This document shows positions 2,603-57,762 of a DNA stretch of 64,000 nucleotides, one piece after another. The DNA comes from an uncultured Verrucomicrobiae bacterium (GTDB taxonomy: Bacteria; Verrucomicrobiota; Verrucomicrobiia; Limisphaerales; UBA11358). Location of the stretch: positions 105,042-169,041 of the forward strand of contig CAVXQV010000011.1 of NCBI GenBank assembly GCA_963764035.1. The letters run 5' to 3'. The translations under genes and the position numbers were made by a program. The notes under the pieces were generated by a model, which was given only the letters and a program-made list of their open reading frames with translations, had not been told where the DNA came from and did no database searches. Position 1 is the stretch's first letter. Each line of letters opens with the position of its first letter.

Positions 2603-2706
2603 TTTTTGGCCAAAACAGGCCGAAAACAGCGAAAAACACGCCTTCCAACGCCCGGACCGTAGGAATTGATGAATTGGGCGCAAGTTGCCCGGCTGGGGCG
2701 GGTTCC

Positions 2707-2820
2707 GGCCACGGTTAAAGGCCAAACATCAAACTTGACCTTGCCCGCCGGTGGACGAATGCTGATGGCATGAAATGGAAAGCAACCCGTTTGCCTTCGC
2801 CAACGCCTGAAACCAAGACA
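2707..2820 (+). promoter_or_regulatory. Conserved 114-nt leader element (copy 1 of 2) with a sigma70-like promoter TTGACC-N17-AATGCT reading into the cassette
   Basis: Its first ~85 nt are about 90% identical to the reverse complement of 52028..52141. The -35 TTGACC is at 2735..2740, followed by a 17-nt spacer and the -10-like AATGCT at 2758..2763. Promoter activity is inferred from sequence only. Confidence 0.35.
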
Positions 2821-3330
2821 CAGGATAGGCTGAATATAGCGCCGTCCATGATCTGTTAGGCATCATCACACGTTTATGCGCTATCTCGTCACTATTTTAT
2901 TTGTGCTGGTAGTTCTCGTCGCCTGTTCACGCAAGTCGGATATTTCCCAGCGCGACCCGCAACGTGAGCAGCGTGATATTCTTCTTCATGCGCAATCGGA
3001 GGCTTTGCAGGCCAAGATTGTCCTGACCCAGTTGCACGACGGACACCTTACCAATGCGCTGGAGCTTTTGGAGATGCAGATAGACACATCGGTTATTATG
3101 ATTGACCATTCTTTGCCGAGCCTTTCCGGCGCACAGCGTGACGAGGCTTTGGGCACGCTACGGCTGCTTAAAGCGTATCGAGAGGCACACCCGCGACAGC
3201 AGGAGGCAGTTATTCCGGATGCCGACAAGGAAGACGCAGCGGCACTGATCCAAGCAAGCCAAAAGGCGTCCCAAATTTTGAGCGATTTGAAATGAACCTG
3301 ATGCCTAATATGAGAATAGGCTGAACGGCT
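2821..3330 (+). mobile_element. Integron-cassette-like unit C1: one ORF between attC-like left and right elements
   Basis: Left element 2821..2864 is CAGGATAGGCTGAATATAGCGCCGTCCATGATCTGTTAGGCATC. Right element 3300..3330 is GATGCCTAATATGAGAATAGGCTGAACGGCT. The 9-nt ends TTAGGCATC/GATGCCTAA are perfect inverted repeats. ATAGGCTGAA is a direct repeat at 2825..2834 and 3316..3325. Both elements recur at 50411..52027 and 57265..57692. Confidence 0.55.
2876..3295 (+). CDS. Hypothetical lipoprotein (cassette ORF, 139 aa)
   Basis: The ATG lies 14 nt after GTTAGGC. The N-terminus MRYLVTILFVLVVLVACSRK has a signal peptide and lipobox Cys. GC is visibly lower than in the neighbours. I do not recognise a family. 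Confidence 0.7.
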   Translation: MRYLVTILFVLVVLVACSRKSDISQRDPQREQRDILLHAQSEALQAKIVLTQLHDGHLTNALELLEMQIDTSVIMIDHSLPSLSGAQRDEALGTLRLLKAYREAHPRQQEAVIPDADKEDAAALIQASQKASQILSDLK

Positions 3331-3349
3331 TGATCCGCCCTCCGCGCAT

Positions 3350-3490
3350 TTATTCATAGCGCAGGGATTCACCCGGGTCGAGGTTTGCACCTTCCACGCG
3401 GGATTGGTTCCAAAGACAATTCCCACGACGGAACACAGCACCAGCCCCGGCACAATCCCGTCCACCGGGTTGGCGGAGGCGCACACCCGG
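3350..3490 (-). pseudogene. Relic of a MacB/FtsX-type permease C-terminus
   Basis: The reverse strand reads [38 protein letters not shown] with one frame slip. This matches the end of the permease at 49149 ([37 protein letters not shown]). No upstream continuation is present. Confidence 0.7.
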
Positions 3491-3545
3491 ATCCCGAAGT
3501 TGCTGGGAGCGAGTAGCGGTGGCGCCTCGTCACCGTAGGGTGGCT

Positions 3546-3640
3546 GCGACGCCCTCGTCGCATGATTCACTGTGTGGGAAGCCGCTGATTCGACCGGCGA
3601 CGAGGGCGTCGCCAACACAGTTCTGCGACGGGGCGTCGCA
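3546..3640. repeat. Three REP-like hairpins of one family (GCGACG-N4-CGTCGC)
   Basis: GCGACGCCCTCGTCGC at 3546..3561, GGCGACGAGGGCGTCGCC at 3596..3613, TGCGACGGGGCGTCGCA at 3624..3640. Confidence 0.7.
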
Positions 3641-3678
3641 GCTACCTGCATTCCGTTCGGAATTCGGATTGAATCCGC

Positions 3679-8150: not shown

Positions 8151-8215
8151 TCGTCCTCGTCGTCGTCCTCGTTCTCTTGATCGAATTTCGAGGACGAGGA
8201 CGAGAACGAGGAGGA
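8151..8215. repeat. REP-like long hairpin (TCGTCC/TCGTCG)n ... (GAGGACGAG)n, copy 1 of 2
   Basis: TCGTCCTCGTCGTCGTCCTCGTTCTC TTGATCGAATT TCGAGGACGAGGACGAGAACGAGGAGGA. A near-identical element lies at 56523..56592. Confidence 0.8.
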
Positions 8216-8222
8216 TTGAAAA

Positions 8223-21594: not shown

Positions 21595-21850
21595 GAGCAC
21601 ACTCTTTCGCCGTTCGAGCGCGCTCTTTTCGCGTGGGAGCATGCTCCCGCGCCGTTCGCGTGCGCTCCCACCGCGTTGGAGCGTGCTCTATCGCCGCGGG
21701 AGCACACGCCTGCGGCGTGGGCGTGCGCTCTTTTCCCGTGGGCGCATGCTCTTTTCCAAAAAGAGCACACTCTTTTCCCGTTGGAGCGCGCTCTTTTTCC
21801 GTTCGAGCATGCTCTTTTCCCGTTGGAGCATGCTCTTTTTCCGAAAGAGG
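21595..21850. repeat. Degenerate tandem array R2, unit exactly 21 bp, 12-13 units
   Basis: Consensus GGAGCRYGCTCTTTTCCCGTT, containing the 10-bp palindromes GAGCATGCTC and GAGCGCGCTC. GAGC or its variants sit at 21595 + 21n for n=0..12, with no indel. All three + frames and two - frames are open. Confidence 0.88.
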
Positions 21851-22065
21851 AGGCGATTTTGGGCGCTTTTTGCCGGCTTTCACGGCTTGAATACGCTAGA
21901 ACAAGTTTATTTTCAACGAGTTACGCTGTAGTGGTCAAAAATAGCCACTTTTTGGGGGTGCCGGGCGGGCGTTCCGATGCCACCCGCCCGCCCCGGCGAA
22001 AGGGACGCCTTTGGAAGGGCGCATATCAAAAAAAAGCCATTTGCCGCCGGGCGTTCAAGCGCGCT

Positions 22066-28892: not shown

Positions 28893-29098
28893 CCCTCGCC
28901 CCGCCCAAGCGGGGAGAGGGTCAGGGTGAGAATTCTCCGAACCCCATTTCGCGCTTTGAACCCCTGCAACCTCAAGATGCGCAAGTCGCTGATAATCAAG
29001 TTGGCGATCTTGAGGTTCATGGGGAGGGGATTTCATTTTTCAATTGAAATCAGCGCCACCTCACCCCAGCCCTCTCCCCCGCTTCGCGGCGGAGAGGG
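28893..29098. repeat. Composite REP-like element with two CCCTC(T/G)CC...GGAGAGGG hairpins, copy 1 of 2
   Basis: Hairpins at 28893..28920 and 29070..29098, joined by ...TTTTCAATTGAAATCAGCGCCACCTCACCCC. The same arrangement occurs inverted at 42525..42635. CATAATCCCAAAGAAATG occurs twice nearby, around 28850 and 29140. Confidence 0.75.
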
Positions 29099-29211
29099 AG
29101 GATTTCCGCGTATCATCTTAATTTTACGTCAACGACATAATCCCAAAGAAATGCCATTTTTGCCATTTTCCAGCTAAATCACCTGTTTTCAGCCAGTTCC
29201 AGCGGTTTTTG

Positions 29212-29484
29212 GATGTCGCAAAATCATTTTGGGACATCCCCCCGGAGTTTTGGGACATCGCAAAGCCAGCTCGTGACATCCCATCGTCGTTTCGCGACGT
29301 CGCACCCCTGGCTTGGGACATCCCAAAACCGCGGTGAGACATCGCGAAATCCTGGCGCGACATCCCGCCGGCGTCTCGGGACATCGCAAAGTTGGCGGGT
29401 CAGATCCCGGCGTCGTTCCGCGACATCGCACCCTTGGCCTGGGATATCGCAGGGCCGCTTTGGGACATCGCCGCCTGGTTTCCT
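29212..29484. repeat. Degenerate tandem array R3, 21-bp phase with 42-bp and 126-bp higher order, 13 units
   Basis: GACATC or variants sit at 29212 + 21n for n=0..12. Units mostly alternate GACATCCC and GACATCGC. Units 2-7 resemble units 8-13 pairwise. The array ends 95 nt before the kinase start. Confidence 0.88.
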
Positions 29485-39154: not shown

Positions 39155-39625
39155 AGGATGAGGGCGGGCGTAAAACACAAAATGATTTGGTTGCAACGAC
39201 CGTCCTCACCCCGGCCCTCTCCTCCGAGGAGAGGGTGGAACTGCCGCCGCCGCCCTGACAATCCACGCGCCGGATTTGCCGGATGGCCAACTGCATCACC
39301 GGAAACGCCCGCAGGCTGTTCCTTCTCCCTGGGGGAGAAGGTCAGGATGAGGGCGGGCGTAAATCACAAAACAATTCAGTTTTAACGACCGTCCTCACCC
39401 CGGCCCTCTCCTCCGAGGAGAGGGTGGAACTGCCGCCGCCGCCCTGACAAGCCATGCGCCGGATTTGCCGGATGGCCAACCGCATCACCGGAAACGCCCA
39501 CAGGCTGTTCCTTCTCCCCGAGGGAGAAGGTCAGGATGAGGGCGGGCGTAAACCACAAACCAATTCAGTTTTAACGACCGTCCTCACCCCGGCCCTCTCC
39601 TCCGAGGAGAGGGAGCACCCGCCCG
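39155..39625. repeat. Tandem repeat, 189-bp unit, about 2.5 copies, each unit carrying two REP-like hairpins
   Basis: AGGATGAGGGCGGGCG starts at 39155, 39344 and 39533. Each unit contains the hairpins CCTTCTCC-N5-GGAGAAGG and CCCTCTCC-N6-GAGAGGG. Confidence 0.9.
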
Positions 39626-40533: not shown

Positions 40534-40900
40534 TCAAGTGGCTGTCAACTAACCGGTTGCCGGGTATGGCAGTGGGCAAGTTGAATTCAACTGACGGTCT
40601 GCCATGTATGGGAGGGGGCAAGTTGAATTCAACTGACGGTCTGCCATGTATGGGAGGGGGCAAGCTGGATTCAACTGATGGGTTGCCATGTATGGGAGGG
40701 GGCAAGTTGGATTCAACTAACGGTCTGCCATGTATGGAGGGGGCAGTGGATCAACTGATGGGTTGCCATGTATGCAGGGGCGAGTTGGATTCAACTGACG
40801 GTCTGCCATACATGGCAGGGGGCCAGTTGAATTCAGCCAACGCCCTTGGCGGTGTCAAGGGAGGGGGGTTGAGACCGGCTGGCGTGCCGGGCGACGGCGG
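40534..40900. repeat. Tandem array R4, 42-bp unit (2 x 21), about 9 units, decaying at both ends
   Basis: Unit GGCAAGTTGAATTCAACTGACGGTCTGCCATGTATGGGAGGG, with the palindrome GTTGAATTCAAC and the near-palindrome CCATGTATGG. GAATTC/GGATTC sits at 40583, 40625, 40667 and 40709. Later units carry small indels. Confidence 0.88.
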
Positions 40901-41208
40901 AGGGGGGCAGTTGAAATCCACCGGCGGTCGGGCGCAACGGGCGGTGGCGTGGCGGCGGCGGGCGATGGGGGTGTCTGCCGCCGGAATGGCTGACGGAAAT
41001 GGGCGCAGGGGTATTGCCGGGCGAAAACAAGCTCGCCGAGGGTTTTGGAAATGGTTCATTCCAATCATCCCGACTCCGCTGATATTGTCTCCCCAGGCGC
41101 GGCGCGGGGCTACACCCTTAATGGTATTGAATGAACATTTCTTGCCACGGTTTGAAGGCGGATTCCGTGCGGAGAGGGAGGCGAAGGCTGCGGCGAGGGG
41201 ATTGGGCG

Positions 41209-41655
41209 TCACTTCTTAAACGTCATGCGGCCTGCCACGCTTGGATGCCCAAATACCATCTCTCCATCTGCCATGTGGTCGAGAAAAAACATTTCATCGT
41301 TACTACCCGGCAGGGCGTCCCGCGTCTTGGTGACTATCAAAACACCGTCCTGGTCAACCCGCCAATACAGGTGACGCTCCTGTTTGTCCGGGCTGTTCGT
41401 GTGTAACACGCTCAACTGTCCATCGGGACTGAACGTAAAGAGCACGAATGGACCATCGGGATTATAGTTGTCAAACCACCAACTGCCGACGATGTGCGCT
41501 CGCAGTTCAGCAGCCGGCACTGTTGTATGCAATTCAGCAGCCGACGCCGCTGAATGTGGCTCTGTCTGCCTGCACGCCGTCAGCAAGCAACCCAACGAGA
41601 TCAATAACAGTGCATTCTTTACAAGCTGTGTTTCATGGCAATGAGTCTGCCCCAT
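41209..41655 (-). CDS. Hypothetical lipoprotein
   Basis: Lipobox LISLGCLLTAC. GC is lower than the surroundings. The start is uncertain (41655 or 41679). Confidence 0.6.
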   Translation of the reverse strand: MGQTHCHETQLVKNALLLISLGCLLTACRQTEPHSAASAAELHTTVPAAELRAHIVGSWWFDNYNPDGPFVLFTFSPDGQLSVLHTNSPDKQERHLYWRVDQDGVLIVTKTRDALPGSNDEMFFLDHMADGEMVFGHPSVAGRMTFKK

Positions 41656-41772
41656 TTTTGAGGTCAATCTCTGATCCATGATTTGACCTTACCCCTGCGT
41701 TTTGGCCCTGTCCACAACTTTTGGCAGCGGAGGGGGCGGGCGCATCAAGATTCGCCCGGCGCACGGCCTGGC

Positions 41773-42465
41773 TTACGCGTCCGGGCCGCCCTGGGCCGCC
41801 ACCCAGCGGATGGCGAAGCGCTGGAATTCAGGCGTGGTCTTCAAGCCGAGCTTCTCCTTGATGTGCGCCCGGTGGACGTCCACCGTTTTGGGACTCAAGT
41901 GGAGGCGTTTGGCGATTTCATCCGTGCTCCAGCCGCCGCCAAACAGCCGCAAGACTTCCAGTTCACGGTCCGACAGTCTGCCCTCCGGCCCTTCACCCGT
42001 CTGTCCGGCCGGCCCGACCATCGCCTCCAGCATCCTGGCGGACATGCGCGGACTCAACGCCACCTGGCCGTTCAACACGGCGCGAATTGCCGTGGCGAGT
42101 TGCTCCGGCGCGCCGCCCTTCATCACGTAGCCGCGTCCGCCGGCCCGCAAAACCCGCGCGGCATAGAGCGATTCGTCCTGCATGGACATCGCCAGCACCG
42201 GCAGGCCCGGATGCAGCGCCTGGATGTCCTTGATGAGTTCCAAGCCGTCCTTGTCCGGCAATCCCATGTCCACCAGCACGAGGTCGGGTTGCAGTTTCGC
42301 AATGGCTTCCATCGCCTCGCGCGCCGTGCCGGCCTCGCCGCAGACGGCCAAATCCGGTTCGCGTTCCAGCAGGTCGGCCTGCCCGCGCCGCATCAGGGGA
42401 TGATCGTCCACCAGCAAAATTCTCTTCCGTTTGACGGCGGCGGCGGATGATTTCTTGACGGCCAT
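41773..42465 (-). CDS. NarL/LuxR-family response regulator
   Basis: REC motifs: ILLVDDHPLMR, VLVDMGLPDKDG. LuxR HTH: LSDRELEVLRLFGGGWSTDEIAKRLHLSPKTVDVHRAHIKEKLG. Confidence 0.88.
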   Translation of the reverse strand: MAVKKSSAAAVKRKRILLVDDHPLMRRGQADLLEREPDLAVCGEAGTAREAMEAIAKLQPDLVLVDMGLPDKDGLELIKDIQALHPGLPVLAMSMQDESLYAARVLRAGGRGYVMKGGAPEQLATAIRAVLNGQVALSPRMSARMLEAMVGPAGQTGEGPEGRLSDRELEVLRLFGGGWSTDEIAKRLHLSPKTVDVHRAHIKEKLGLKTTPEFQRFAIRWVAAQGGPDA

Positions 42466-42524
42466 GGCTTCTGGAATTGGGACTACTTCGTTGACACAAA
42501 TTTACCAATGACATTCGCAAACTT

Positions 42525-42635
42525 CTCCCTCTCCGCCGCGAAGCGGGGGAGAGGGCCGGGGTGAGGTGGCGCTGATTTCAATGGAAAAAGAATTGCCCCT
42601 CACCCTGACCCTCTCCCCGTCCGACGGGGAGAGGG
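42525..42635. repeat. Composite REP-like two-hairpin element, copy 2 (inverted relative to 28893..29098)
   Basis: CTCCCTCTCCGCCGCGAAGCGGGGGAGAGGG ... GGCGCTGATTTCAATGGAAAAAGAATTGCCCCTCACCC ... CCCTCTCCCCGTCCGACGGGGAGAGGG. Confidence 0.75.
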
Positions 42636-42652
42636 AATACAGCAATTGTATG

Positions 42653-44122
42653 TCATCGGCATAGTTCCTCATAATCTTGCTTTGATTTTCGTCGTGTTAC
42701 GCGTTGCTGCCGGCGGCGACTTCCATTCCCAAGACCGCCTTGGGCACGGAGCAGATCGACCGTGACGCCGCCGTGGGGCTGGTTGCGCACGGACAATTGC
42801 CCGCCGACCAGCCGCGCGCGTTGTTCCATCGTGTGGAGGCCCAGCCCGCGGGATTGCCTGGCCGACGGCAGGCCGACGCCGTTGTCCCGGATTCTCAACT
42901 CCACGCTGGCGGGCTGGTCGGCCAGTTCCAGATCAATGCGCGACGCGTGGCTGTGCTTGAGCGCGTTGTGGACCGCCTCCTGCGCGATCCGGTAGAGATG
43001 ACTGGCCACGAGTTGATTCGGCATCAGAATCGTCGCGGCGCTGTTGAAGACGCAGTTGGCGCCGCGCTCGCTGGCGCGCTCGGCCAGGTTCTCCAGCGCC
43101 TGCGACAAACCGTCCGGCGACGGCGGCACGGCATAGAGTTCGTGGGCCAAGGTGCGCGCCTGCGTCAGCGCGACGGCGATCTCACCGGCAAGCCGTCGGG
43201 CGGTGTCCGCGTGCGGGGCGTGCGCGGACTGCAAGTCGCGGCACAAGCCGTCCATCAGAAACCGCAGTCCGCCCAGTTGCTGGCCCAGGCCGTCGTGCAG
43301 TTCCCGCGCGATGCGCGCCCGTTCCTGCTCGGCCGCCGCCTCCACGGCCAGTTCCAGCGCCCGGCGCTCGGAGATGTCGCGCGCGATTTTCGCGGCGCCG
43401 ATGATCCGGCCCTGGCTGTCCTTGATGGGGGAGATGGTCACCGAAACCTCGATGCGCTTGCCGTCCCGGCGCAGCCGGACGGTTTCGTAGTGGTCCACGC
43501 TCTCGCCGCGCGTAATCCGGGCCAGGATGTCCGCCTCTTCCTTCACGCGTTCCGGCGGAAAGAGCATCAGGATGGGCTGGCCCACGGCCTCGCTGGCCGG
43601 ATAGCCGAAAAGTTTTTCCGCGCCGCGGTTCCAGCTCGTGATGATGCCGTCCAGAGTCTTGCTGAAGATGGCGTCATCCGACGACTCGACAATGGCCGCC
43701 ATGCGGGCGAGCGATTCTTCCGCCTGTTTCCGCGCGGTGATGTCGGCGCGGATGGCCACGTATTGGCGCGGCTTGCCCTGCTCGTTGAGGAACGGCACGA
43801 TGGTCGTGTCCACCCAGTAAAAACTGCCGTCCTTGGCCCGGTTCCGGATTTCGCCCTTCCAGACCCGGCCCTGCGCGATGGTGGTCCACAAATCGCGCAT
43901 GAATTCCTTGGAATGGTGGCCGGAATTGATGAGGCGATGGTCCTGCCCCAGCAACTCCGCGCGCGGGTATTTTGAGATCGCGCAGAACTTGTCGTTGACG
44001 TAGGTGATTTTCCCCTGGGGATCGGTGATGGCCACAATGGCGTGCTCGTCGAGGGCGGCCTTCAACTCGACCACCTCGCGGTATCGCGCTTCATCCGGTT
44101 GTATTGAAGATTCCGTCCGCAC
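42653..44122 (-). CDS. PAS-PAS sensor histidine kinase (HisKA_3 / NarX-DegS type)
   Basis: Intact 489 aa with two PAS domains ([14 protein letters not shown]..., [15 protein letters not shown]...), an H-box [12 protein letters not shown] and the HATPase motif [20 protein letters not shown]. It pairs with the adjacent NarL-type regulator. Confidence 0.85.
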
Positions 44123-44250
44123 CTGTGTGCCTTTGCCGAAAACGGGTTAACCCATTCGCCAAAGCCGGGTTACTGTGCCATCATCCCGGCCGCTTCTTTT
44201 CCTTTGCCACACAAGCGATTAACGCATTTCACCGGAACATACAACATTTT

Positions 44251-44277
44251 TTGACTTTCAATATGACAAAATACACT
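44251..44277 (+). promoter_or_regulatory. Possible sigma70-type promoter for the macAB operon
   Basis: TTGACT at 44251..44256 and TACACT at 44272..44277, with a short 15-nt spacer. The match is weak and rests on sequence only. Confidence 0.2.
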
Positions 44278-44377
44278 CCGCCGTAAACGGCATCCGCTCC
44301 GAGCAGCATCTCCGGCACCCCGGCGCGCGCTCCGGGGTGCGACAATCTTTGGCCGGACTTGCCGCGAATGCCGCCGG

Positions 44378-45865
44378 TTGAAACTGGACAATCGCCGGCG
44401 GTTTCCGCATTTTTGTCGGGTGGAAAAGCCACCTATCCTCCAATCGCTTCCTGTCACTCCCAGGAAAAAGAAACGCGGGGTGTTGATTGTCTGTCTGGTC
44501 GTCGGCGTGGCCCTGGCCTTGAGCGCCGTCGTCGTGGTCGTCAAGCGCGCGCAAGCCGCCCATCACGGTGCAGACCACCAAGGTTTCGCGCCACAGCCTC
44601 ACCAACCTCGTCGTCGCCAACGGCCAGATCCAGCCCGTCGTGCAGGTCACCATCAGCCCGGAGGTGAGCGGCGAAATCATCGACCTGCCGGTCAAGGAAG
44701 GCCAGCTCGTCAACAAGGGCGATTTGCTGGTGAAAATCAAACCGGATGTCTATGTCGCGGCGGTCAACCAGGCCAAGGCCAGTTACGCCTCGTCGGTGGC
44801 CGGCCAGGCCCAGTCCGCGGCCAACGCGGAAAAGGCCGAGGCGGATTACCAGCGCAATCTGGAATTGTTCAACCGCAAACTGCTTTCGGAATCGGACTTC
44901 ATCGGGTTCAAGGCCGCGCGCGACGTGGCCCGCGCCCAGTTGGAAAGCGCCACCAACCAGGTGAACATGGCCAAGGCCGGCGTGGACAGCGCGGAGGAGG
45001 AACTGGCCAAAACCACCATCTTTTCGCCGCTCACCGGCACCATCACCCGCTTGAATTCCGAAGTCGGCGAACGCGTCCTGGGCACGGTCCAGAATGCCGG
45101 AACCGAAATCATGACCATCTCGGATTTGAACCAGATCGAGGCGCGGGTGAACGTGGGCGAAATGGACGTGGTCGGCATCACGCCCGGCCAGCAGGCGCGG
45201 CTGGAAGTGGACGCCTTCAAGGACCGCAAATTCACCGGCGTGGTGACGGACGTCGCCAATTCCGCCGTCGGTTCGGGCAGCCAGAGCAGCCACCGCCAGC
45301 AGCAGCCAGTCGCAGCAGGCCACGCAATTTGAAGTGCGCATCCGCGTCAACGAAAAGGAGCCGGCCTTCCGCCCCGGCATGTCGGTGACGGCGGAAATCG
45401 AAACCGAGTATCGCACCAACGTCCTGACCGTTCCGCTGGCCAGCGTCACCACCCGCCCGATGAAACCTGATCCGCCGAAAACCGGCGGAACAAATGCCGA
45501 CCGCCGCCACCGCTTCAAGCACCAACGCAGTCGCAGGCACAAACAGTGTCGCGGGCACGAACACCGACAAGGCTGCGGGAAAACTGGCATCGGCCGCCAA
45601 ATCGAACGACGTCGCCAAACCGACCGACGTGGTCTTCGTGGTGGACGGCGACCACGTGAAGGCCGTGCCGGTGAAGATCGGCATTTGCGACGACAATTAC
45701 TGGGAAATCACCGACGGCCTGACCAACGACGAGGAGATTGTCTCCGGCGGTTACCGCGCCATCGGACGCGACCTTCAGGACGGCTCGAAAATCCACGTCG
45801 GCCCGGCCGGAGCGGACACCGGAGACGGAAAAGAAATGAAAACTTTGGTGAAACGTGATGTGTGA
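44378..45865 (+). CDS. macA: MacA/HlyD-family periplasmic adaptor of an ABC-type efflux pump; frame broken about 3 times
   Basis: A TM anchor (VLIVCLVVGVALALSAVVVVV) is followed by VVANGQIQPVVQVTISPEVSGEIIDLPVKEGQLVNKGDLL, a coiled-coil hairpin, TIFSPLTGTITRLN, and a beta-barrel/MP domain. The pieces lie in ORFs 44378..45388, 44568..45332, 45334..45858 and 45494..45865. The start is uncertain. Confidence 0.8.
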
Positions 45866-45928
45866 AACGTGAATAACAGCAATCTCGGAACAATTTTCAC
45901 GCTTCACGCTTCACGCTTCACTTCAACC

Positions 45929-46637
45929 ATGAGCTTGATTCATCTCCAGCAAATTTCGCGGCGCTACCAGATGGGCGGGGAAACCGTCCACGCCCTGCGC
46001 GACGTGTCGCTCGAAATCCAGCGCGGCGAATACGTCGCCATCATGGGACCGTCCGGCTCCGGCAAATCCACGCTCATGAATTTGATCGGCTGCCTCGACA
46101 CGCCCATCGCCGGCCGCTACGAATTGAACGGCATCAGCGTCAGCGAAATGGACGACAACCAGCTCGCCGAAATCCGCAACCGGGAGATCGGTTTCGTCTT
46201 CCAGACCTTCAACCTGCTGGCGCGCTCGAACGCGCTGCACAACGTCGAACTGCCGCTGATTTACGCGGGCGTGCCCGCCGACGAACGGCGGCAGATCGCG
46301 CTGGAGGCGCTGGCCAACGTCGGCCTGGCCGACCGCGTTCATCACAAGCCCAACGAACTGTCCGGCGGCCAGCGCCAGCGCGTGGCCGTGGCGCGCGCGC
46401 TCGTCAACAAGCCGTCCATCCTGCTGGCCGACGAGCCGACGGGCAATCTCGATTCCAAGACCGGCGACGGAAATCATGGCGCTGTTCGACGAGCTTTCCC
46501 GGAAAGGCAACACCATCATCGTCGTCACGCACGAGGAGGACATCGCCCGGCACGCCCGCCGCATCATCCGCATCCGCGACGGCTTGATCGCCAGCGACGA
46601 AACGGTCGAACATCGACATTCCGGAATTCCGTCATGA
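45929..46637 (+). CDS. macB: MacB/LolD-type ABC transporter ATP-binding protein; one frame break near 46460
   Basis: Walker [11 protein letters not shown]-loop FVFQTFNL, signature [15 protein letters not shown], Walker [13 protein letters not shown]. After the slip the sequence continues [23 protein letters not shown]. Confidence 0.88.
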
Positions 46638-47873
46638 ACTTTCTCTGTTCCGAAATCCGCGAAGGCCTGGGCATCTCCTGGGCCGCCCTGCGCGCGAACA
46701 AGATGCGCTCGGTGCTGGCCACGCTCGGCATCGTCATCGGCATTCTCACCGTCACGCTCATGGGCGCGGCCATCAACGGATTGAACCAGGCGTTCATCCG
46801 CAACGTTTCCTCGCTGGGCGCGAATGTGTTTTACGTGTCGCGCTACAAGTGGTTCAACAATTCCTACGAGGACTGGTTGAGCATGCGGCGGCGCCCGCCG
46901 ATCACGCTCGCCGAGGCGGAAAACGTCGGCCCGGCTGTTGACCCTCGCCCAGGCCGTCGCGCCCGACGGCGTACGACGATGACCCGGTGAAATACAGGAA
47001 CCGCAGCGCCGACAGCGTGGACAATCATCGGCACGACGGAAGCCTACCTGCAAACCAGCGGCGTGGACGTGGCGGACGGCCGGTTCCTGACCGCCGCCGA
47101 CGCCGAAGGCACCCAGCCGATTTGCGTCATCGGCAACGACGTCGCCACGAATCTGTTTCGCGGCGAATCGCCCCTCGGCAAGCGCATCCGCATCGCGGAC
47201 CAGTCGTTTCAAGTCGTCGGCGTGCTGCAAAAACAGGGCATGATGTTCGGCGACAGCCTCGACAACCGCATCATCGTTCCGCTCCGGGAATTTTTGAAGG
47301 ACATCTGGAGCCGGCCGAACATTGACCATCCAGGTGAAGGCCGGCTCGGCTGGCGCAGCTGGACGAGGCCCAGGAGGAATTGCGCCAGGTGATGCGCCAG
47401 CGTCCGCCACCTGCGCCCGGACCAGCCCGACAATTTTTCCATCAACCAGCAGGACCAGATCGTCGACATGGTTTCATGCGCAGACCGCCGTCATCGCCAT
47501 CATCGGCCTGTTCGTCACCAGCCTGGCGCTGTTCGTCGGCGGCATCGGCATCATGAACATCATGTTCGTGTCGGTCGTCGAGCGGACGCGCGAAATCGGC
47601 GTGCGCAAGGCCATCGGCGCCAAACGCCGCACCATCCTGCTGCAATTTCTGATCGAAGCCGCCTCCATCTGCCTCTTCGGCGGCTTGATCGCGCTGGGCA
47701 TCGCGTGGCTGGCCACGCTGGCGGTGACCCATTGGCTGTTTCCGGCCAGCCTGTCGGCGGGCATCGTCGTCATCTCGGTGCTGGTCTCGGTGATGACCGG
47801 GGTGGTTTCCGGTTTCCTGCCGGCCTGGCGCGCGGCGCGGATGGACCCGGTGGAGGCGTTGAGGAGCGAATGA
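46634..47873 (+). CDS. MacB/FtsX-family ABC permease 1; frame broken at least 4 times
   Basis: N-terminus [25 protein letters not shown], a MacB periplasmic core ([27 protein letters not shown]), and the FtsX C-terminus [38 protein letters not shown]...[20 protein letters not shown]. Confidence 0.82.
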
Positions 47874-47876
47874 AAC

Positions 47877-49149
47877 ATGCATCTGCGGCCAACCATCGTC
47901 CTGCTGCTCGGCGAAATCCGCGGAAAGCATTTCGATGGCCTTGAACGCGATCATCGGCGCACAAGCTGCGCTCCGCGCTCACGCTGCTCGGCGTGTTGAT
48001 CGGCGTGTTTTCCATCATCGTCGTGATGACCGCCATGCGCGTGCTGGAGCGGAACATCGAAGACCAACTTGAGCCAGTTGGGCAGCCAGACGTTTGCCAT
48101 CCAGAAATGTCCGGCAGGTCCAGTTCGGCAACAGTTCCGATTGGGAAAAATACTGGCGGCGCAAGAACATCACGCTCGAACAGGGCGCAAGCGGTCGCGG
48201 AAAAGGCCACGCTCGCCGCCGCCGTCGGCGTCGAAGGCACTTTCTGGGGCGGCCAGATCTCAGACCCGCTACGCCAAGACCGCGCCCAACGTCCAGTTGC
48301 TCGGCGACACGCCCGGCAGTTTCCCGGCGCACAACTGGATCATTGACGAGGGCCGCCTTTTTGACGACAGCGACGTGGACAACGCCCGCAGCGTTTGCGT
48401 GCTGGGCAGCGCGCTGGCCAAAACGGTTTTTCCCTTCGGCTCCGCCCTCGGCGAGCAACTCAAAATCAACGGCATCAATTACGCCGTCGTCGGCGTGCTC
48501 GCGCCCAAGGGCGGCTCGGTCGGCGGCAACCAGGACAACTTCGCCGTCGTCCCGCTCACCACGGCGCTCCACCGCTACGGACTGCGCTGGAACGGATTGA
48601 GCATTCTGGTCCAGGCGCGCAGCTCCGCCGTCTACGCCGATTGCGAGGAACAGGTGCGCGGCATCCTGCGCGACGCCCGCAAGGTCCGGCCCGGCGACCC
48701 GGACGATTTTGAACTGTATCTCCAACGACTCGCTGATCGAACAATTCAAGACCTTCACCCGCGCCGTGCGCATCGGCGTGGCGGTGGTCAGCTCCATCGC
48801 GCTGCTCGCGGCGGGCGTCGGCATCATGAACATCATGCTCGTCTCGGTCACGGAACGGACGCGGGAAATCGGCGTCCGCCGCGCCATCGGCGCCAAGCGG
48901 CGGAACATCATGGCGCAATTCATCATGGAAGCCGTCGTGCTGTGCGAAGTCGGCGGCGTCATCGGCGTCGTGCTCGGCATTCTGGGCGGCAACGTCCTCG
49001 CCTGGTTCATGAAAGTCCCGCCCGCCATCCCGGTGGACTGGATTGTGCTCGGGCTGGTGCTGTGCTCCGTCGTGGGCATTGTCTTCGGCACCTATCCCGC
49101 GTGGAAGGCGGCGAACCTCGACCCGATTGAATCCCTGCGCTACGAATAA
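47877..49149 (+). CDS. MacB/FtsX-family ABC permease 2; frame broken at least 5 times
   Basis: Motifs: KLRSALTLLGVLIGVFSIIVVMTAM; LKINGINYAVVGVLAPKG; [38 protein letters not shown]...GTYPAWKAANLDPIESLRYE*. Confidence 0.82.
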
Positions 49150-49151
49150 AG

Positions 49152-50239
49152 ATGGCCGGGCCTAAAAACAGCGGCTACCTGCGGCAATTGGATGGTTTGC
49201 GCGCCTTGTCCGTCGCGGCCGTCGCCTGGAGCCATTGGCGCGCCTATTGGTTCCGGGAATCCTCCGTGCCCTGGGCGGAATTTGGCGTTGAAACCTTTTT
49301 CGTCATCAGCGGCTTTTTAATCACGGGCATCCTCCTGGACAACCGTTCAGAATCATCGAAGCCCTTTGTCCTGCGGCAATTTTACGCGCGCCGGTTCCTC
49401 CGAATTTTTCCGCTGTTCTACGCGACCCTTGTGATCGGGTTCGTTCTGCGCGCCGACAGCCTGCGTCAAACGTTGTTTTGGCACGCCGGTTATTTGTCCA
49501 ACATCTATTTTTACCTTTGGGGCTGGTGCGGGCAATTGAGCCATTTCTGGTCGCTGGCGGTGGAGGAACAATTCTACCTGTTCTGGCCGCTCCTGATGAT
49601 TTTCCTGCCCAAACGCTTTTTGCTGCCGGCGATCCTGGCCGGCATCGGATTCGCCCCCTGTTTGAAACCGCCATGGATTCGTTTTATCCGGGGCATTCAG
49701 CGCAGGTGTCGGCCAGCGTTTTGATGCCCAGTTGCATGGACGCCCTGGGCATGGGCGCCTTGCTCGCTTACGGCATCAGAAACCAATTTCCCATGAAACG
49801 CCTGGCCTTGATCCTTCTACCGGTTGGAATCGCCGGCTACGCCTTGTGCAATCATTTCGGCGCGTGCAAAGCGGCCGGACGGCTGGCGGAAGATTGCGTC
49901 TTGGGCTGGCTGGTTTATTCCGCCGCCCAAGGTTTTCGCGGACCGTTCGGATGGTTTCTGGAATGTGCGCCGATGAACTATCTGGGCAAAATCAGCTACG
50001 GCCTGTATGTCATACACAATTTCGCCGTCTCCATTTGCACGTCCTTGATACTTCGATTGGGAAGCCCCGATTGGCTGGTCAGACTTTACAACATCCCCGT
50101 GGTGCGAATCCTGGCATTCACCGGCGTGACCGTGGGACTGGCCGCTTATTCATGGCATCGGTTTGAAAAGCCGATCAACAATCTGAAACGCAAATTCCCA
50201 TACCCCGTTGCTGCGGCAACGCCTTCGCCCGGGCCTTGA
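49152..50239 (+). CDS. Acyltransferase family 3 (OafA/YrhL-like) membrane protein; one frame break near 49660
   Basis: Motifs: LDGLRALSVAAVAWSH, FFVISGFLITGIL, HFWSLAVEEQFYLFWP, GKISYGLYVIHNF. The pieces lie in ORFs 49152..49724 and 49478..50239. It starts 2 nt after the permease stop. Confidence 0.82.
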
Positions 50240-50251
50240 AACTGCCGCGCA

Positions 50252-50376
50252 CCATTCCGTCGGACAGGATTGCGCTGGGGCTGGGGCTGTGCTCCCTCGT
50301 GGGCATTGTCTTCGGCACCTACCCCGCTTGGAAGGCTGCGAACCTCGACCCGATTGAATCCCTGCGCTACGAATAA
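50252..50376 (+). pseudogene. Duplicated 3' end of the MacB/FtsX permease gene (about 90% identical to 49025..49149)
   Basis: It reads ...IALGLGLCSLVGIVFGTYPAWKAANLDPIESLRYE* and has no upstream gene body. It forms a direct repeat bracketing the acyltransferase gene. Confidence 0.85.
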
Positions 50377-50459
50377 ATTCGCGGGGAAGGATTGAATGCA
50401 AAGGAGATTGAGCCGTTCAGCCTATTCTCATATTAGGCAGCGCATATGGCTGCGCTGCG

Positions 50460-51029
50460 TCAATCTCTTGGTAGCAGCCCCAAATGCTTCTCAATAATAC
50501 TGGTCGTAATTTCATCCGAATAGTTTGGACATAACTCATATGATCTCTTCAAACTGTAAGACCTCTTGTCAAGTAATGAGTAATCGAATGTCTCCATGTC
50601 CTCAATCCGATCCCCGTTCCGAAACTCTCGCAGCAATGTGGGACTCGAAATCACGCCGTTTCCGCCATCGTAGTAACTGCCATCCGGCAGTTTGCTCAAA
50701 ACGTGATCACAAATCCCATTGGTTGTCATGATAAACGCGATGCAGACCTTATCATTGAACTTCTCGTTCCACTCTTCGTAAAACAGCTTGGCAAAACGAC
50801 CACAAGGCCCCCGGTCAATTCGTGGCCACCCATCCACATATCCGTAGGTCAAATTGATTTCGTCCCTCAATCCATTCAGCACGGCCACCTGCTGATAGCT
50901 TAATCCTCTTGCTGGAGCAGTTTTATAAACAGGTAGTTGCCGGCAAGAGCATAGAGAGAAAACCAGCGTCATGATTATCAGAAACTTTTGCCAAGGTCGC
51001 AGCATCGTTAATTTGGTTTGTTTCATCAC
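50460..51029 (-). CDS. Hypothetical lipoprotein (cassette ORF, 189 aa)
   Basis: Signal peptide and lipobox (LIIMTLVFSLCSCRQ). Markedly lower GC. Followed by the hairpin GCAGCGCA-N6-TGCGCTGC. Confidence 0.7.
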   Translation of the reverse strand: MMKQTKLTMLRPWQKFLIIMTLVFSLCSCRQLPVYKTAPARGLSYQQVAVLNGLRDEINLTYGYVDGWPRIDRGPCGRFAKLFYEEWNEKFNDKVCIAFIMTTNGICDHVLSKLPDGSYYDGGNGVISSPTLLREFRNGDRIEDMETFDYSLLDKRSYSLKRSYELCPNYSDEITTSIIEKHLGLLPRD

Positions 51030-51054
51030 ACCGGCGCGGTGTTAGGCGACGAAA

Positions 51055-51915
51055 TCATTTCGAAACATCAAAGCTGGTGACCAAGCCATATCGAACCTCA
51101 CGATAACCGTTGCGCATCCTAGATGACTTGATGAATCGCTCTACAGCCGCGTCCAGCCAGCGTTGATCCGATGCGGTGATGAGAGTTCCACCGCTCGAGT
51201 GTATAATTACATAACCTGAATACATAAATGGATGGAAAGAGCGTGTCTCCAACCAAACACAACCGGCAGGAGGGTTGGTTTGCATTTCTGTGAGAGGAAA
51301 ACCAAATGCCTTCGCTAACTTCTCTGCCGCCTCACGGTGTGCTTTCGAAGCGTCTTGAGGTATTCCAATGTTTGGGCAGATACGATGCCACAGTAGAACG
51401 TCTGCGTAGGAACTTCCTAAATTCTCGATGAAATTATCAGCAACAACACGTTGAGGAGCGTTGGAAGCAACCAGCCGATCCCTCGCGGTCAGCAATGCCG
51501 CCCTGTCTTGCGTCAAAAAGGCTTTCATCGCCGCAACATTATCGTTCCAATTCGCTCCTAGATCAGAGGTTTTGTCGTAGCATATTGCCTGATCCAATTG
51601 TTCCACCGCCAGCGTGTTCCTGCCCGCCACTGCATACAATTGCGCCTCATGGAAGTGAAGAAACTTTTGCTGAGAAACCGTTAATTCCGGGTGCGCTTTT
51701 AGGTAATCACGAATCAGAACCGCAGCCTCAAAATACCGCCCACTGTCGTAAAGCACACGAAACCCAGAGCCATAAGTCTGATCAAAGTCACTGTAAGAAA
51801 GCGAAAGCATGGCTGTTCGTTCTCGGCTTTCTTGAGTCGCGCAACCTCCAACAAGTATGCTGAAGATCACAAGAACCAGTGACGTTACTACCGCTGATTG
51901 GATGAAACGACTCAT
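51055..51915 (-). CDS. Hypothetical lipoprotein (cassette ORF, 286 aa)
   Basis: Signal peptide and lipobox (LVLVIFSILVGGCATQ). Lower GC. I do not recognise a family. Confidence 0.7.
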   Translation of the reverse strand: MSRFIQSAVVTSLVLVIFSILVGGCATQESRERTAMLSLSYSDFDQTYGSGFRVLYDSGRYFEAAVLIRDYLKAHPELTVSQQKFLHFHEAQLYAVAGRNTLAVEQLDQAICYDKTSDLGANWNDNVAAMKAFLTQDRAALLTARDRLVASNAPQRVVADNFIENLGSSYADVLLWHRICPNIGIPQDASKAHREAAEKLAKAFGFPLTEMQTNPPAGCVWLETRSFHPFMYSGYVIIHSSGGTLITASDQRWLDAAVERFIKSSRMRNGYREVRYGLVTSFDVSK

Positions 51916-52027
51916 ATCACCTCATAGACACCGACCACACAGTGTTTTGTATAACTATTTTTATTGTGCTTGGTCCCGACATCGCAGCCTAACAGAACGT
52001 GGGCGGTGCCGTATTCAGCCCATCCTG

Positions 52028-52141
52028 TTTCATGGCTTTGAGTGTTAGCGGAAGCAAACGGGTTGCATTCCATTTCATGGCGTCAGCATTCGTCCACTGG
52101 CGGGCAAGGTCAAGTTCGATGTTTGGCCTTCAGCCGTGGCC
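52028..52141 (-). promoter_or_regulatory. Conserved leader element (copy 2) with TTGACC-N17-AATGCT reading into cassette unit C2
   Basis: Its reverse complement aligns with 2707..2820. The -35 is at 52113..52108 and the -10-like hexamer at 52090..52085, both on the minus strand. Confidence 0.35.
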
Positions 52142-52342
52142 GTCACGGTCATTTGATGCCGAAGCGTTTTTTGACTTCGGCATGGGTGAGGCGCGGTTTG
52201 CCTTCGTCGCGCACGCGCGCTTCGGTCAGGTCCGGATAACCGAATCCACGCCTGTCCTGCGCAAGCCGGCTCGCGCCGCGTGGCTGGCAACTGCATGGAA
52301 CCGGTTTAATCCGTCCCTCCGTGATTGAACCGCGGCTTTTAG

Positions 52343-53005: not shown

Positions 53006-54112
53006 TCAGACGTTGAACTTGAAGAGCAGCACGTCGCCGTCTTTTACGACGTATTCCTTGCCTTCCATCCGGTAAAGGCCCTTTTCGCGCGCGGCGGCGA
53101 CGGAGCCGCATTTCACCAAATCGTCGTAGGCCACGGTCTCGGCCTTGATGAAGCCGCGCTCGAAATCGGAATGGATCACGCCCGCCGCCTTGGGCGCGGT
53201 GTCGCCGGCGTGAATCGTCCAGGCGCGGACCTCCTTTTCGCCGGCGGTCAGGTAAGTCCGCAGGCCGAGCAGGTGATAGGTGGCGCGGATGAGCTGGCCG
53301 ATGCCGGATTCCTCCACGCCGAGTTCCTTGAGAAATTGTTTCGCTTCGTCGGGCGAGAGGTCAATCAGGTCGCTCTCGATTTGCGCGCTGATGACGACGG
53401 CTTCGCAGGCGAGGTGCGTTTTGACGTAATCGCGCACCTTGAGGACAAATGGATTTTTGTCGGCGGTGGCCAGATCGCCTTCCTTCACGTTGCAGGCGAA
53501 AATCGTCGGGCTTGTCGGTGAGCAGGAAGAAAGCCCCTGGCCATCGCTTTTTCGTCCGGTGAGAGCTGGACGGTCAAGGCGAGTTTGCCGGAGTTGAGAA
53601 CCGGTTCAAATTTCGCGAGCACGGCGTCCTCGGCCACGGCGGCCTTTTCGCCGCGCTTCACGTCCTTGGCGAGTTTCTCGCGGCGTTTCTTGATGTTGTC
53701 GAGGTCGGCGATGACCAGTTCGGTGTTGATGATCTCGATGTCGCGGACGGGGTCAATCGTGCCGGTGACGTGGATGAATGTCCGCGTCCTCGAAGCAGCG
53801 GACGACCTGGACGATGGCGTCCACTTCGCGGATGTGGGAGAGGAATTTGTTGCCGAGGCCTTCGCCGTCGCTCGCGCCCTTGACGAGGCCGGCGATGTCC
53901 ACGAATTCAATGGCCGCCGGGATGATGACGGTGGTTTTGGCGATCTTGGCGAGCGGTTCGAGCCGCGGGTCCGGCACGGTGACGACGCCGACGTTCGGGT
54001 CGATGGTGCAAAAGGGATAATTCGCCGCCTCGGCCTTGCGCGTGCGCGTGACGGCGTTGAACAGCGTGGATTTGCCCACGTTGGGCAGTCCGACGATTCC
54101 GGCTTTGAGCAT
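53006..54112 (-). CDS. ychF: Ribosome-binding ATPase YchF (Obg-like); frame broken twice
   Basis: G1 [15 protein letters not shown] and [10 protein letters not shown], followed by the TGS/C-terminal domain [30 protein letters not shown]. The pieces lie in ORFs 53753..54112, 53485..53910 and 53006..53488. Confidence 0.9.
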
Positions 54113-54175
54113 AATTAGTTACCGCAAAGGGGAAGAATAAACCACGAAGGCGCGCCGGGACAAAGCAATTTGTTT

Positions 54176-56450: not shown

Positions 56451-56522
56451 CGCGGGCAAGAGTAAAATTTCCGGACGGCACTTGCAATTCGGCATTTTCG
56501 GTGCAAGTTAAGCGGCAACAAA

Positions 56523-56592
56523 TCGTCCTCGTCGTCGTCCTCGTCCTCGTAATCGAAAACAAAAATCGAGGACGAGATCGAGAACGAGGAGG
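56523..56592. repeat. REP-like long hairpin (TCGTCC)n ... (GAGGACGAG)n, copy 2
   Basis: TCGTCCTCGTCGTCGTCCTCGTCCTCGTAATCGA AAACAAAA ATCGAGGACGAGATCGAGAACGAGGAGGA. Compare 8151..8215. Confidence 0.8.
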
Positions 56593-56614
56593 AAAATAAA
56601 CGAAAGAGAAAATT

Positions 56615-57150: not shown

Positions 57151-57264
57151 GCGAGCTTTGGCAGCAAAGCCTGAAAGAATTTACGATTGGCGATTGACGA
57201 TTTACGAGCGCGGGAAATTCGCCCGCCTCGTAAATCCGTCGTGGCAGCGGGAACGGCGAGACGA

Positions 57265-57692
57265 TTGCAGCCTATCCTTATATTAGACGCCCCCCGTTCT
57301 TCCGCTGGGGTCCACGAACGGAAATCTTTTCCGTAGGTCGTCCAAAGATGAGACGTGGCGACTCGACACCAAGCTGGTAGCTTCAGCTAGCGCGACACCG
57401 ATAGGATCAACACTTGGATCAGGAGCGCAGTTACGACGCAGAGTGAATGTTTCCGCACCGCGCTTGAGACCGAGCCAGCGCCTCGGGCTTGGTGTAACAA
57501 TGGGTTCCAGCCATACTCCGTCGGCGTCGTAAAACACAATGACTCCTGACTCAACGTCACGAGAGTAGGAACCCCATTCCCGAAGAAGCTGGTCCTCGTC
57601 TTCGAACAGTCTCACTTCGCCGTATTCAAGAACGCCGATGATCATCTTTTAGCGTCTAACTGATAATGGTCAGCATGATATTCCGTCTATCC
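57265..57692 (-). mobile_element. Integron-cassette-like unit C3: one ORF between attC-like left and right elements
   Basis: On the minus strand, the left element 57692..57651 reads GGATAGACGGAATATCATGCTGACCATTATCAGTTAGACGCT, 29/41 identical to 2821..2861. The right element 57290..57265 reads GCGTCTAATATAAGGATAGGCTGCAA. The 9-nt ends TTAGACGCT/AGCGTCTAA are perfect inverted repeats and differ from those of C1 in a compensating way. Confidence 0.5.
57283..57645 (-). CDS. Hypothetical protein (cassette ORF, 120 aa)
   Basis: The ATG lies 8 nt after GTTAGAC+GCT. The TAA stop lies inside the GTCTAAT box. GC is lower than the flanks. I do not recognise a family. Confidence 0.6.
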   Translation of the reverse strand: MIIGVLEYGEVRLFEDEDQLLREWGSYSRDVESGVIVFYDADGVWLEPIVTPSPRRWLGLKRGAETFTLRRNCAPDPSVDPIGVALAEATSLVSSRHVSSLDDLRKRFPFVDPSGRTGGV

Positions 57693-57762
57693 TAAATTGC
57701 GGGGCAAACCTATTTCCGCTGCAAATTCTGTCAAGCCAGTTTCTTTAATCAGATTTAAAGAG

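Follow-up and report, generated by a model that had tools for sequence, protein, structure and literature searches.

What makes two short loci of one genome agree closely in their flanks and differ entirely in the genes between them, and by what route do such genes come to change places? The loci that raise this question lie on contig CAVXQV010000011.1, of which we analysed a stretch of 64,000 nucleotides (nt), hereafter the window, whose coordinates are used throughout: locus 2 occupies 52142-50213 on the minus strand, and locus 1, its paralogous counterpart, 2706-3476 on the plus strand. Our analyses support a cassette-like unit with variable cargo, and an integron-like site-specific mechanism is not supported. 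Taken as a whole, the explanation that we regard as moderately probable is that the cargo of this unit is exchanged by homologous recombination in its conserved flanks and expressed by way of a short upstream open reading frame (uORF).

The flanks of the two loci are 85-94% identical, and the leader, the left element, the right element and a 3′ relic of an FtsX permease gene are common to both, while blastp detects no similarity between the two cargos; on both points the preliminary description of this DNA, which had read the loci as the same flanks around unrelated open reading frames (ORFs), was right. Repeat searches and alignment show the leader and left element (52142-51987 versus 2706-2861; 85% over 156 nt) to be a single unbroken homology block, which ends exactly and at the same point in both loci, after TCTGTTAGGC. 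Homology sets in again at TGCCTAATATGAG in the alignment of the two loci, and the repeat search extends it over the right element (50439-50406 versus 3302-3335; 94% over 34 nt) and, further on, over 3342-3389 versus 50337-50384 (90%). Flank identities of such size over ~350 nt are far beyond chance. The earlier placement of the elements held apart from small shifts, and the permease relic proved longer than the 50376..50252 first given, extending over 50377-50213. The features concerned are the following.

52149..52240, minus strand: 3′ remnant of a 61-aa gene (ending in DLTEARVRDEGKPRLTHAEVKKRFGIK and a stop), adjoining leader 2; the same gene end and leader junction occur in L025
52034..52142, minus strand: leader 5′ core of locus 2, with the putative promoter TTGACC (52113-52108), 17-nt spacer, AATGCT (52090-52085)
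51989..52078, minus strand: uORF of 29 codons (MKWNATRLLPLTLKAMKQDGLNTAPPTFC and a stop), ATG at 52078-52076, stop TAG within GTTAGGC (51993-51987)
51986..52033, minus strand: left element, a short-uORF module (MKQDGLNTAPPTFC and a stop) and the 5′ end of the dispersed unit (nhmmer left-element profile)
51055..51915, minus strand: cargo 2a, a 286-aa lipoprotein with lipobox LVGGC (ORF list, Pfam, structure model)
51041..51047, minus strand: orphan GCCTAAC, lying in the 25 nt that separate cargo 2a from cargo 2b (motif count)
50460..51029, minus strand: cargo 2b, a 189-aa lipoprotein with lipobox SLCSC (ORF list, structure model)
50374..50439, minus strand: right element, with its core TGCCTAATATGAGAATAGGCTGAA (50439-50416) and then a tail up to the stop codon of the relic
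50213..50377, plus strand: FtsX2 relic, the last 165 nt of the gene, 87% identical to 48986-49150
49152..50239, plus strand: Acyltransferase_3 gene between full-length FtsX2 and the relic, in two frames in the window and intact (362 aa) in L001
47884..49149, plus strand: FtsX2, second permease of a MacB-type adaptor-ABC-FtsX1-FtsX2 operon
2706..3476, plus strand: locus 1, the paralogous unit, with leader 2706-2861, uORF 2770-2859, cargo 2876-3295, right element 3302-3352 and the FtsX relic to 3476
57231..57695, minus strand: third unit, with left element 57695-57653, cargo 57645-57283 (120 aa, no Pfam family) and right element 57288-57231

One slot, different cargo in nearly every strain

Scans for the leader returned one genome contig (L004) with a 22-base pattern and 14 metagenome contigs with a 23-base pattern, and more contigs were fetched via FtsX2 homologues (contigs collected for comparison bear L numbers). 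The closest FtsX2 homologues are labelled as Verrucomicrobiae or Verrucomicrobiota metagenome-assembled genomes, and the contigs are mostly metagenomic. Wherever a contig contains enough DNA, the order is always the leader, a low-GC ORF of 128-286 aa and a convergent FtsX 3′ end. By blastn against the window, L005, L009, L010 and L013 have the gene for the SNF2 helicase (window 1-2201, 92-95% identical) directly upstream of the leader, and L007, L009, L010 and L015 have FtsX2 (90-93% identical) directly downstream of the cargo; in L006, SNF2 is reduced to a 54-nt 3′ remnant upstream of the leader. Because SNF2 is thus placed upstream and FtsX2 downstream across relatives, these loci are one orthologous slot, with the standard order SNF2, leader, cargo and convergent FtsX2-FtsX1-ABC-adaptor. 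Locus 1, whose cargo is a 139-aa lipoprotein, sits directly 3′ of the SNF2 gene, as in this standard slot.

The slot is small (0.2-1.6 kb, one or two genes) and uniform in orientation, 20 of 20 units pointing the same way relative to the uORF. An all-against-all blastp comparison of 17 slots and three other units found one related pair (L024/L026, 55% identical), which leaves 19 unrelated cargo families among the 20 units and 16 among the 17 SNF2-FtsX2 slots. The same position between flanks of 90-95% identity (SNF2 and FtsX2) is therefore occupied by different content from strain to strain. The preliminary description had proposed a platform for interchangeable cargo and had called for further variable-cargo copies to be sought; the search was strongly positive, in the slot itself, in a tandem arrangement and at units outside the slot.

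The tandem occurs in L025, where leader A, hicB, hicA, the 61-aa gene, leader B, a tiny ORF and FtsX2 follow one another, so that two complete leaders each have a cargo of their own. Here the 61-aa gene is intact and is the last gene of the upstream cassette, which has its own leader. The sequence upstream of leader 2 in the window (52240-52149) corresponds to the 3′ end of this gene and its junction with the leader, and from this common gene end and junction we conclude that locus 2 descends from a two-cassette array.

Distant relatives, with FtsX2 74-87% identical, possess the operon and lack the leader. In L022 and L023, genes of ~580 and ~450 aa lie 3′ of FtsX2, in L023 running to a convergent SNF2 gene, and homologues of these two genes adjoin relic 1 in the window. 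No acyltransferase gene is present at the slot in L004, L007, L009, L010 and L015. The gap between FtsX1 and FtsX2 also varies: L020, L022 and L023 have a 169-aa 23S_rRNA_IVP (four-helix bundle) gene there, which is absent from the window, and L004 has a 189-aa ORF in the same gap, comparable in position and similar size only.

The cargos are low in GC, consist of one or two genes and mostly encode lipoproteins or secreted and membrane proteins, with some toxin-antitoxin, nuclease and DNA-binding proteins among them. Lipoboxes are found in seven cargos, and signal peptides or membrane segments in several others. Pfam gives generic matches only (Sel1, TPR, Ank, DUF2314, AP2, DUF4760, NucS_C-like, HicA), and annotation of the cargos for anti-phage defence with PADLOC gave no match. 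At locus 2, cargo 2a (GC 0.49) and cargo 2b (0.45) stand out from the window (0.61), and both have lipoprotein signal peptides. The structure model of cargo 2a combines a TPR-like helical N-terminal half with a C-terminal domain that resembles the non-catalytic N-terminal domain of GH20 enzymes, a combination that reveals no function; cargo 2b belongs to a conserved family with invariant Cys, His and Asp, and its confident structure model has no match in the PDB.

Homologues of 2a and 2b (74-75% nt identity) form an adjacent, overlapping pair in L030-L032, in a context without the leader, without an FtsX gene and without a heptamer between the genes; in more distant genomes each homologue is also found alone. 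Most likely, to judge from these homologues, the 2a-2b pair entered locus 2 as one unit. The orphan GCCTAAC (51047-51041) had been correctly located, and a fusion of two cassettes had been suggested from it; because 2a-2b homologues are paired elsewhere without any heptamer, it is not evidence of such a fusion. In L030 (3063-3515) and L031 (728-1180) the homologous pair has a Y1_Tnp (IS200/IS605-type) gene 2.5 kb away.

Leader, right element and units outside the slot

The leader core, GGCCAAACATCAAACTTGACCTTGCCCGCCGGTGGACGAATGCTGACGNCATGAAATGGAAAGCAACCCGTTTGCTTCC, is almost invariant in the 14 metagenome loci, in the genome locus L004 and in the loci fetched via FtsX2 homologues, whereas the sequence 3′ of it is different in every contig. 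The TTGACC-N17-AATGCT motif noticed earlier (52113-52085) is indeed present and is invariant in all relatives. It agrees with the sigma-70 consensus at 8 of 12 positions, and the leader would, by virtue of this putative promoter, supply transcription to whatever follows. The leader gave no match on plasmids.

A start codon, the ATG of the uORF, lies a constant 6 nt 3′ of the putative -10 hexamer. This frame stays open for 42-102 nt in 18 of 18 leaders, and early stops interrupt the other two. In eight of the 18 leaders, at junctions otherwise unrelated, the stop of the uORF shares bases with the cargo start (ATGA) or is at most 7 nt away, and in 16 of the 18 it is no more than ~33 nt away. A conserved upstream frame whose stop stands near the downstream start codon is what uORF-coupled expression looks like, and it suggests translation of the uORF, probably on a leaderless mRNA, with coupling to the cargo. 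The stop in both window loci is the TAG inside GTTAGGC, and the left element is the 3′ end of this conserved uORF; the sharp left boundary of homology is accordingly explained as the end of a uORF, which we presume to be translated. The nhmmer profile of the left element matches the window at 2816-2864, 52033-51986 and 57695-57653, and also L004, L011, L015, L016 and L022.

A structured RNA was considered for the leader and rejected: hairpin 1 is invariant, hairpin 2 covaries no more than shuffled controls do, and the same holds for the two hairpins together (148/500). Rfam models reached gathering score nowhere in the window and E<=1 nowhere in locus 2, so that no cis-regulatory RNA of the Rfam type was recognized, and a scan of the window for transfer RNA and transfer-messenger RNA found none.

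Several repeats accompany the leaders. In the window (2372-2602) and in L024, L026 and L027, the DNA that separates the upstream gene from the leader holds arrays of 21-nt tandem repeats; in L024 and L026 a similar 21-nt array has the opposite orientation, and a partial leader copy precedes it. Further partial leader copies are found in L013 (8946-8991) and L018 (943-977), and sequences resembling repetitive extragenic palindromes also recur upstream of leaders in several contigs.

At the other end of the cargo, the right element has the consensus core GCCTAATATGAGrATAGGCTGmA and a tail of ~35 nt. No consensus fold as RNA or DNA emerges from 11 right elements. The GCCTAAT heptamer is limited to a subset of alleles. 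In the window as a whole, GCCTAAY heptamers are ordinary in number (five observed, 4.5 expected from shuffles).

A search for the right-element core in all collected DNA, allowing up to five mismatches, found further copies, all with at most four mismatches, a level at which ~0.008 chance matches are expected. One belongs to the third unit of the window (57695-57231, minus strand), which lies between a GreA-domain gene and a DUF5069 gene; its left element keeps the same 37-nt spacing (GGATAGACGGAATATC and ATCAGTTAG), its 120-aa ORF has its stop inside GTCTAAT, and it is without the leader core and without an FtsX relic. L022 has a uORF (MNNDRLQNEPPINC and a stop) that corresponds by homology to the latter half of the window uORFs; a lipoprotein gene comes next, then the right element with its tail, and this unit is convergent with a gene of ~450 aa rather than with FtsX2. 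The last is on a phage contig, L019 (IMGVR_UViG_3300037104_000533), which carries a terminase fragment and a portal gene: at 354-1200, beside the terminase, a uORF ending in TGTTAGGCC, a lipoprotein gene and the right-element core follow one another. This unit, between the terminase and portal genes, has a GC content of 0.50 against 0.55 for the contig, and its promoter and terminator are putative; the remaining 19 units all lie outside phage contexts. In L019, terminase and portal are separated by ~5.6 kb of accessory genes. Motif scans of IMG/VR gave this one phage example only, and neither the leader core nor the left-element pattern was found in viral contigs. Units outside the slot have other upstream sequences. 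The unit as such is a short uORF, a cargo and the right element, and the leader core, with its putative promoter and a stretch that lengthens the uORF at its 5′ end, is an addition specific to the SNF2-FtsX2 slot.

Homologous exchange and its alternatives

The most direct view of an exchange comes from L024 and L026, two contigs from different metagenomes that are 100% identical over 4.9 kb up to late FtsX2. From there, identity declines from 0.97 to 0.87 across the final ~350 nt of the gene, stands at 0.45-0.7 in the cargo, recovers within the leader and is ~100% beyond. This profile is that of a homologous-recombination replacement tract with its ends in FtsX2 and in the leader. In the comparison of the window with L001, not one mismatch occurs over 1.4 kb comprising cargo 2a, cargo 2b and the right element, and a divergence of 5-12% begins at the relic; unless L001 is a chimeric metagenome contig, this is an identical cassette in diverged backgrounds. 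With that caveat for L001, both comparisons show divergence tracts that end in conserved flanks. Over 44600-50400 the whole adaptor-ABC-FtsX operon is 5-12% different from L001, and 41000-44400 only 0-3%, so the operon region is itself mosaic.

The relics are in keeping with such exchange. Those of window locus 1, L013 and L014 have a one-base deletion in common and stand next to different cargos. Relic lengths of ~95, 135 and 165 nt show that breakpoints fell at various places in the end of FtsX2. The acyltransferase gene is bracketed by a duplicated FtsX 3′ end, an arrangement that a one-sided, homology-anchored insertion would leave behind. The standard arrangement is recovered only in part by an inversion that has its ends in the inverted leaders or in the FtsX 3′ copies.

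On this explanation locus 2 is one copy of a small cassette-like transcription unit of a peat-soil Verrucomicrobiota lineage, whose main home is the hypervariable slot between the SNF2 helicase gene and the convergent FtsX2 3′ end. Cargo alleles move between strains as tracts ending in the leader, in the right element or in the last few hundred bases of FtsX2, the 3′ end of which is the right-hand recombination anchor, and any gene placed just behind the uORF stop would be expressed. The FtsX 3′ relics, the two inverted copies and the tandem leaders of L025 may all be by-products of recombination in the flanks, including one-sided or illegitimate joins.

Several observations sit uneasily with this explanation. 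Homologous recombination can only reshuffle existing alleles, and it does not account for the first entry of 19 unrelated genes behind the same uORF. Support from L001 is weakened by the possible chimerism of that contig, the coupling of uORF and cargo is predicted only, and a promoter scan of the leader did not call TTGACC-N17-AATGCT, so that of the earlier promoter proposal the motif stands and its promoter role is putative. Within the subset of loci with a b-type leader, boundaries are sharp to 1-3 nt for unrelated cargos. In four loci the cargo-facing left and right ends are complementary, with inner bases specific to the locus (TTAGGCATCA/TGATGCCTAA, TTAGGCTGCG/CGCTGCCTAA, AGGCCACC/GGTGGCCT and CATTGAGCATA/TATGCTCAATG). 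A direct repeat of ~12 nt, GGATAGGCTGmA, with which the left element begins and the right-element core ends, brackets many units. The right-element core, finally, is identical at 24 of 24 positions between the window and the phage contig L019, though the left sides are only ~70% alike, and is under strong sequence constraint. Sharp boundaries, complementary ends, direct repeat and invariant phage core are hints of a more specific process.

Because of the complementary ends, the direct repeat, the constraint on the core and the problem of first insertion, we retain specialised or site-specific capture as a minority reading. In its broader form, which we consider possible though doubtful, the short uORF with TGT-TAG at its end that makes up the left element would, together with the invariant 24-nt right element, be the handles of an undescribed cassette system of Verrucomicrobiota and their phages, without an integron integrase, in which cassettes are captured, expressed and passed between chromosomal slots and phage genomes; the agent may be an unknown recombinase whose target is the split palindrome or the direct repeat, or else recombination by way of very short conserved handles. 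A true site-specific cassette system, with an unidentified recombinase elsewhere in the genome or on a phage and with homologous recombination superimposed, appears unlikely to us. Its sites would be the inverted GTTAGGC/GCCTAAT or, as an att core, the direct repeat GGATAGGCTGmA. Such a system would explain why boundaries are sharp to 1-3 nt around unrelated cargos in loci 1 and 2, L004 and L011, why inner bases covary (ATCA/TGAT, TGCG/CGCT, CACC/GGTG), why the direct repeat surrounds the units and why these turn up in four or more contexts unrelated to one another, including a phage with a 24/24 core; all five GCCTAAY heptamers of the window, moreover, fall inside loci 1 and 2. Against it, Pfam searches of the ORFs found no recombinase or transposase within ~10 kb of loci 1 and 2, and none is present among the called genes of the related loci L020-L029. 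Single-stranded DNA behind each cargo folds into no attC-like structure, merely into a 5-bp GCCTA/TAGGC hairpin (z-scores -0.5 to -1.4), and neither junction has a full palindromic core site. The boundaries move in L010, L013, L018 and L009 (the leader is cut short in L013 and L018, and the GCCTAAT...AGGCTG part is missing in L010 and L013), recombination tracts fade gradually within FtsX2 and the leader, and neither L023 nor L020 offers an empty att-like site. Long-range pairing of the 5′ and 3′ ends around the cargo was rejected as a general feature: across 15 loci, own pairs are no stabler than cross pairs (p=0.23), and only four loci have inverted repeats, of 8-11 nt, that reach significance. 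With no recombinase within 10 kb, no attC fold, a left junction that is the uORF stop in GTTAGGC, shifting boundaries and gradual tracts, the earlier proposal of site-specific insertion is not supported.

The phage contig invites a further alternative, in part overlapping with exchange by homologous recombination, in which the units are of phage moron type: their ends would be 5′ and 3′ untranslated signals, and they would have been dropped into the chromosomal slot and exchanged with phages by short-homology recombination. L019, with its terminase fragment and portal gene, has a lipoprotein gene set between a uORF ending in TGTTAGGCC and an identical right-element core, and the cargos, which are low in GC, small and often lipoprotein, membrane, toxin-antitoxin or nuclease genes, are of a suitable kind. 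However, the motif scans of IMG/VR produced a single phage example, the leader core is absent from viral contigs, these contain no relatives of cargo 2a or 2b, and no prophage genes adjoin the chromosomal units, and we therefore rate this origin as quite improbable. Plain segmental duplication followed by divergence of the ORFs, without any special turnover, was the outcome that the preliminary description had named as fatal to its proposal. Paralogous flanks lying 49 kb apart in inverted orientation and an evident rearrangement relative to distant relatives would suit it, but flanks of 85-94% identity enclose cargos without detectable similarity, almost every related strain has a gene of its own in the orthologous slot, and homologues of 2a-2b (74-75% nt identity) occur in an unrelated context; the unrelated cargos and the population data already refute duplication alone.

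Known systems and the rest of the window

Integrons are defined by the integrase IntI, a tyrosine recombinase encoded beside the cassette array, together with attC sites, imperfect palindromes that have R''-L''...L'-R' boxes, an unpaired spacer in the centre, extrahelical bases and a terminal structure that varies, and attC-site clusters without an integron integrase (CALINs) by at least two attC (Cury et al. 2016, PMC4889954; attC structure, PMC2727003). Like integron arrays and CALINs, the units described here combine a fixed upstream expression signal with small, mostly uncharacterised cargo of foreign composition in a single orientation and occasionally in tandem. Unlike them, they have no IntI within ~10 kb of either locus or in L020-L029, and the folds of the DNA behind the cargos contain none of the R and L boxes, spacer and extrahelical bases of attC, let alone two such sites; the same 3′ element stands behind all cargos, however unrelated. 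Integron cassettes rarely carry promoters and depend on a single one, Pc, at the platform, whereas here every cargo comes with a separate uORF, joined in the slot by a separate putative promoter, both cassettes of L025 having a complete leader; the exchange tracts, too, look like homologous recombination. GTTAGGC and GCCTAAC happen to match the core and inverse-core consensus of integrons. The resemblance to integrons is functional only, and membership fails on IntI, attC and promoterless cassettes. An inverton is equally at odds with the absence of an invertase within 10 kb and with the one orientation of 20/20 units.

The defining features of replacement flexible islands and hotspots (Lopez-Perez et al. 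2014, PMC4033161; Touchon et al. 2009, PMC2617782; for Pseudomonas core defence hotspots, PMC10250203) are present: the same position between conserved genes, varied content and the divergence profiles of flank recombination. The slot differs from them in being tiny, in having a conserved promoter/uORF and 3′ element inside its flanks, in the uniform orientation behind the uORF and in the repetition of its end sequences elsewhere, at further loci and in a phage. Phage morons are independent transcription units, with a promoter and terminator of their own, set between phage genes (Cumby et al. 2012, PMC3594210). Small size, atypical composition, horizontal spread and frequent envelope proteins are features of both, and one unit, that of L019, lies between terminase and portal and may qualify as a moron, but for morons no common uORF and 3′ element are known across unrelated cargos, and the present units are mostly chromosomal, with no prophage around them.

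In the Borrelia erp/mlp families, with their upstream homology box, and in the variable lipoprotein genes of Mycoplasma, a conserved 5′ region precedes divergent lipoprotein genes, and recombination there shuffles the genes. The conserved promoter or 5′ region ahead of divergent lipoprotein genes is the likeness; in those families, however, the genes are paralogues on plasmids or in arrays within a single genome, and conservation takes in the signal peptide, whereas here the cargos are unrelated and the uORF is separate. To our knowledge, gene capture behind a fixed expression signal is known mainly from integrons, where integrase and attC are needed. In the literature searched, a slot of such small size, a uORF dock with uniform orientation and the same two ends at several loci and in a phage appear to be undescribed. 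If the ends are only expression signals, they make a very clean natural plug-in expression dock, kept by homologous recombination, that marks fine-scale strain variation in an uncultured soil phylum; if they are recombination handles, they represent a new way of building cassette diversity. In either case the cargos, mostly envelope proteins plus toxin-antitoxin and nuclease-like proteins, are candidates for strain-specific interaction or defence functions.

The neighbours recognized by Pfam around the two loci are housekeeping genes only (Suf system, glutaminase, two-component system, YchF, phospholipid synthesis, GreA, FabI). SNF2, FtsX1, FtsX2, the acyltransferase, the glutaminase and YchF are each split over two or three frames in the window (261-2198, 47063-49149, 49152-50239, 10969-12029, 53009-54118), which may reflect either indel errors of the assembly or real decay. 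Calling the acyltransferase and FtsX genes pseudogenes is not justified, with many window genes split and with the FtsX genes (FtsX2 of 421 aa) and the acyltransferase (362 aa) intact in L001.

Other repeats of the window include tandem arrays at 21595-21856, 29216-29467, 39155-39623 and 40535-40864, with periods of 21, 63, 189 and 42 nt, respectively; the 42-nt array falls together with a GC skew of +0.32 at 40-41 kb. A dispersed inverted repeat of 94 nt (87%) links 29012-29105 and 42520-42613, and GAC/GAG-rich palindromic repeats of 67 nt occur at 8151-8217 and 56521-56593. Directly inside relic 1 lies a 49-nt inverted repeat (3513-3561 and 3597-3645).

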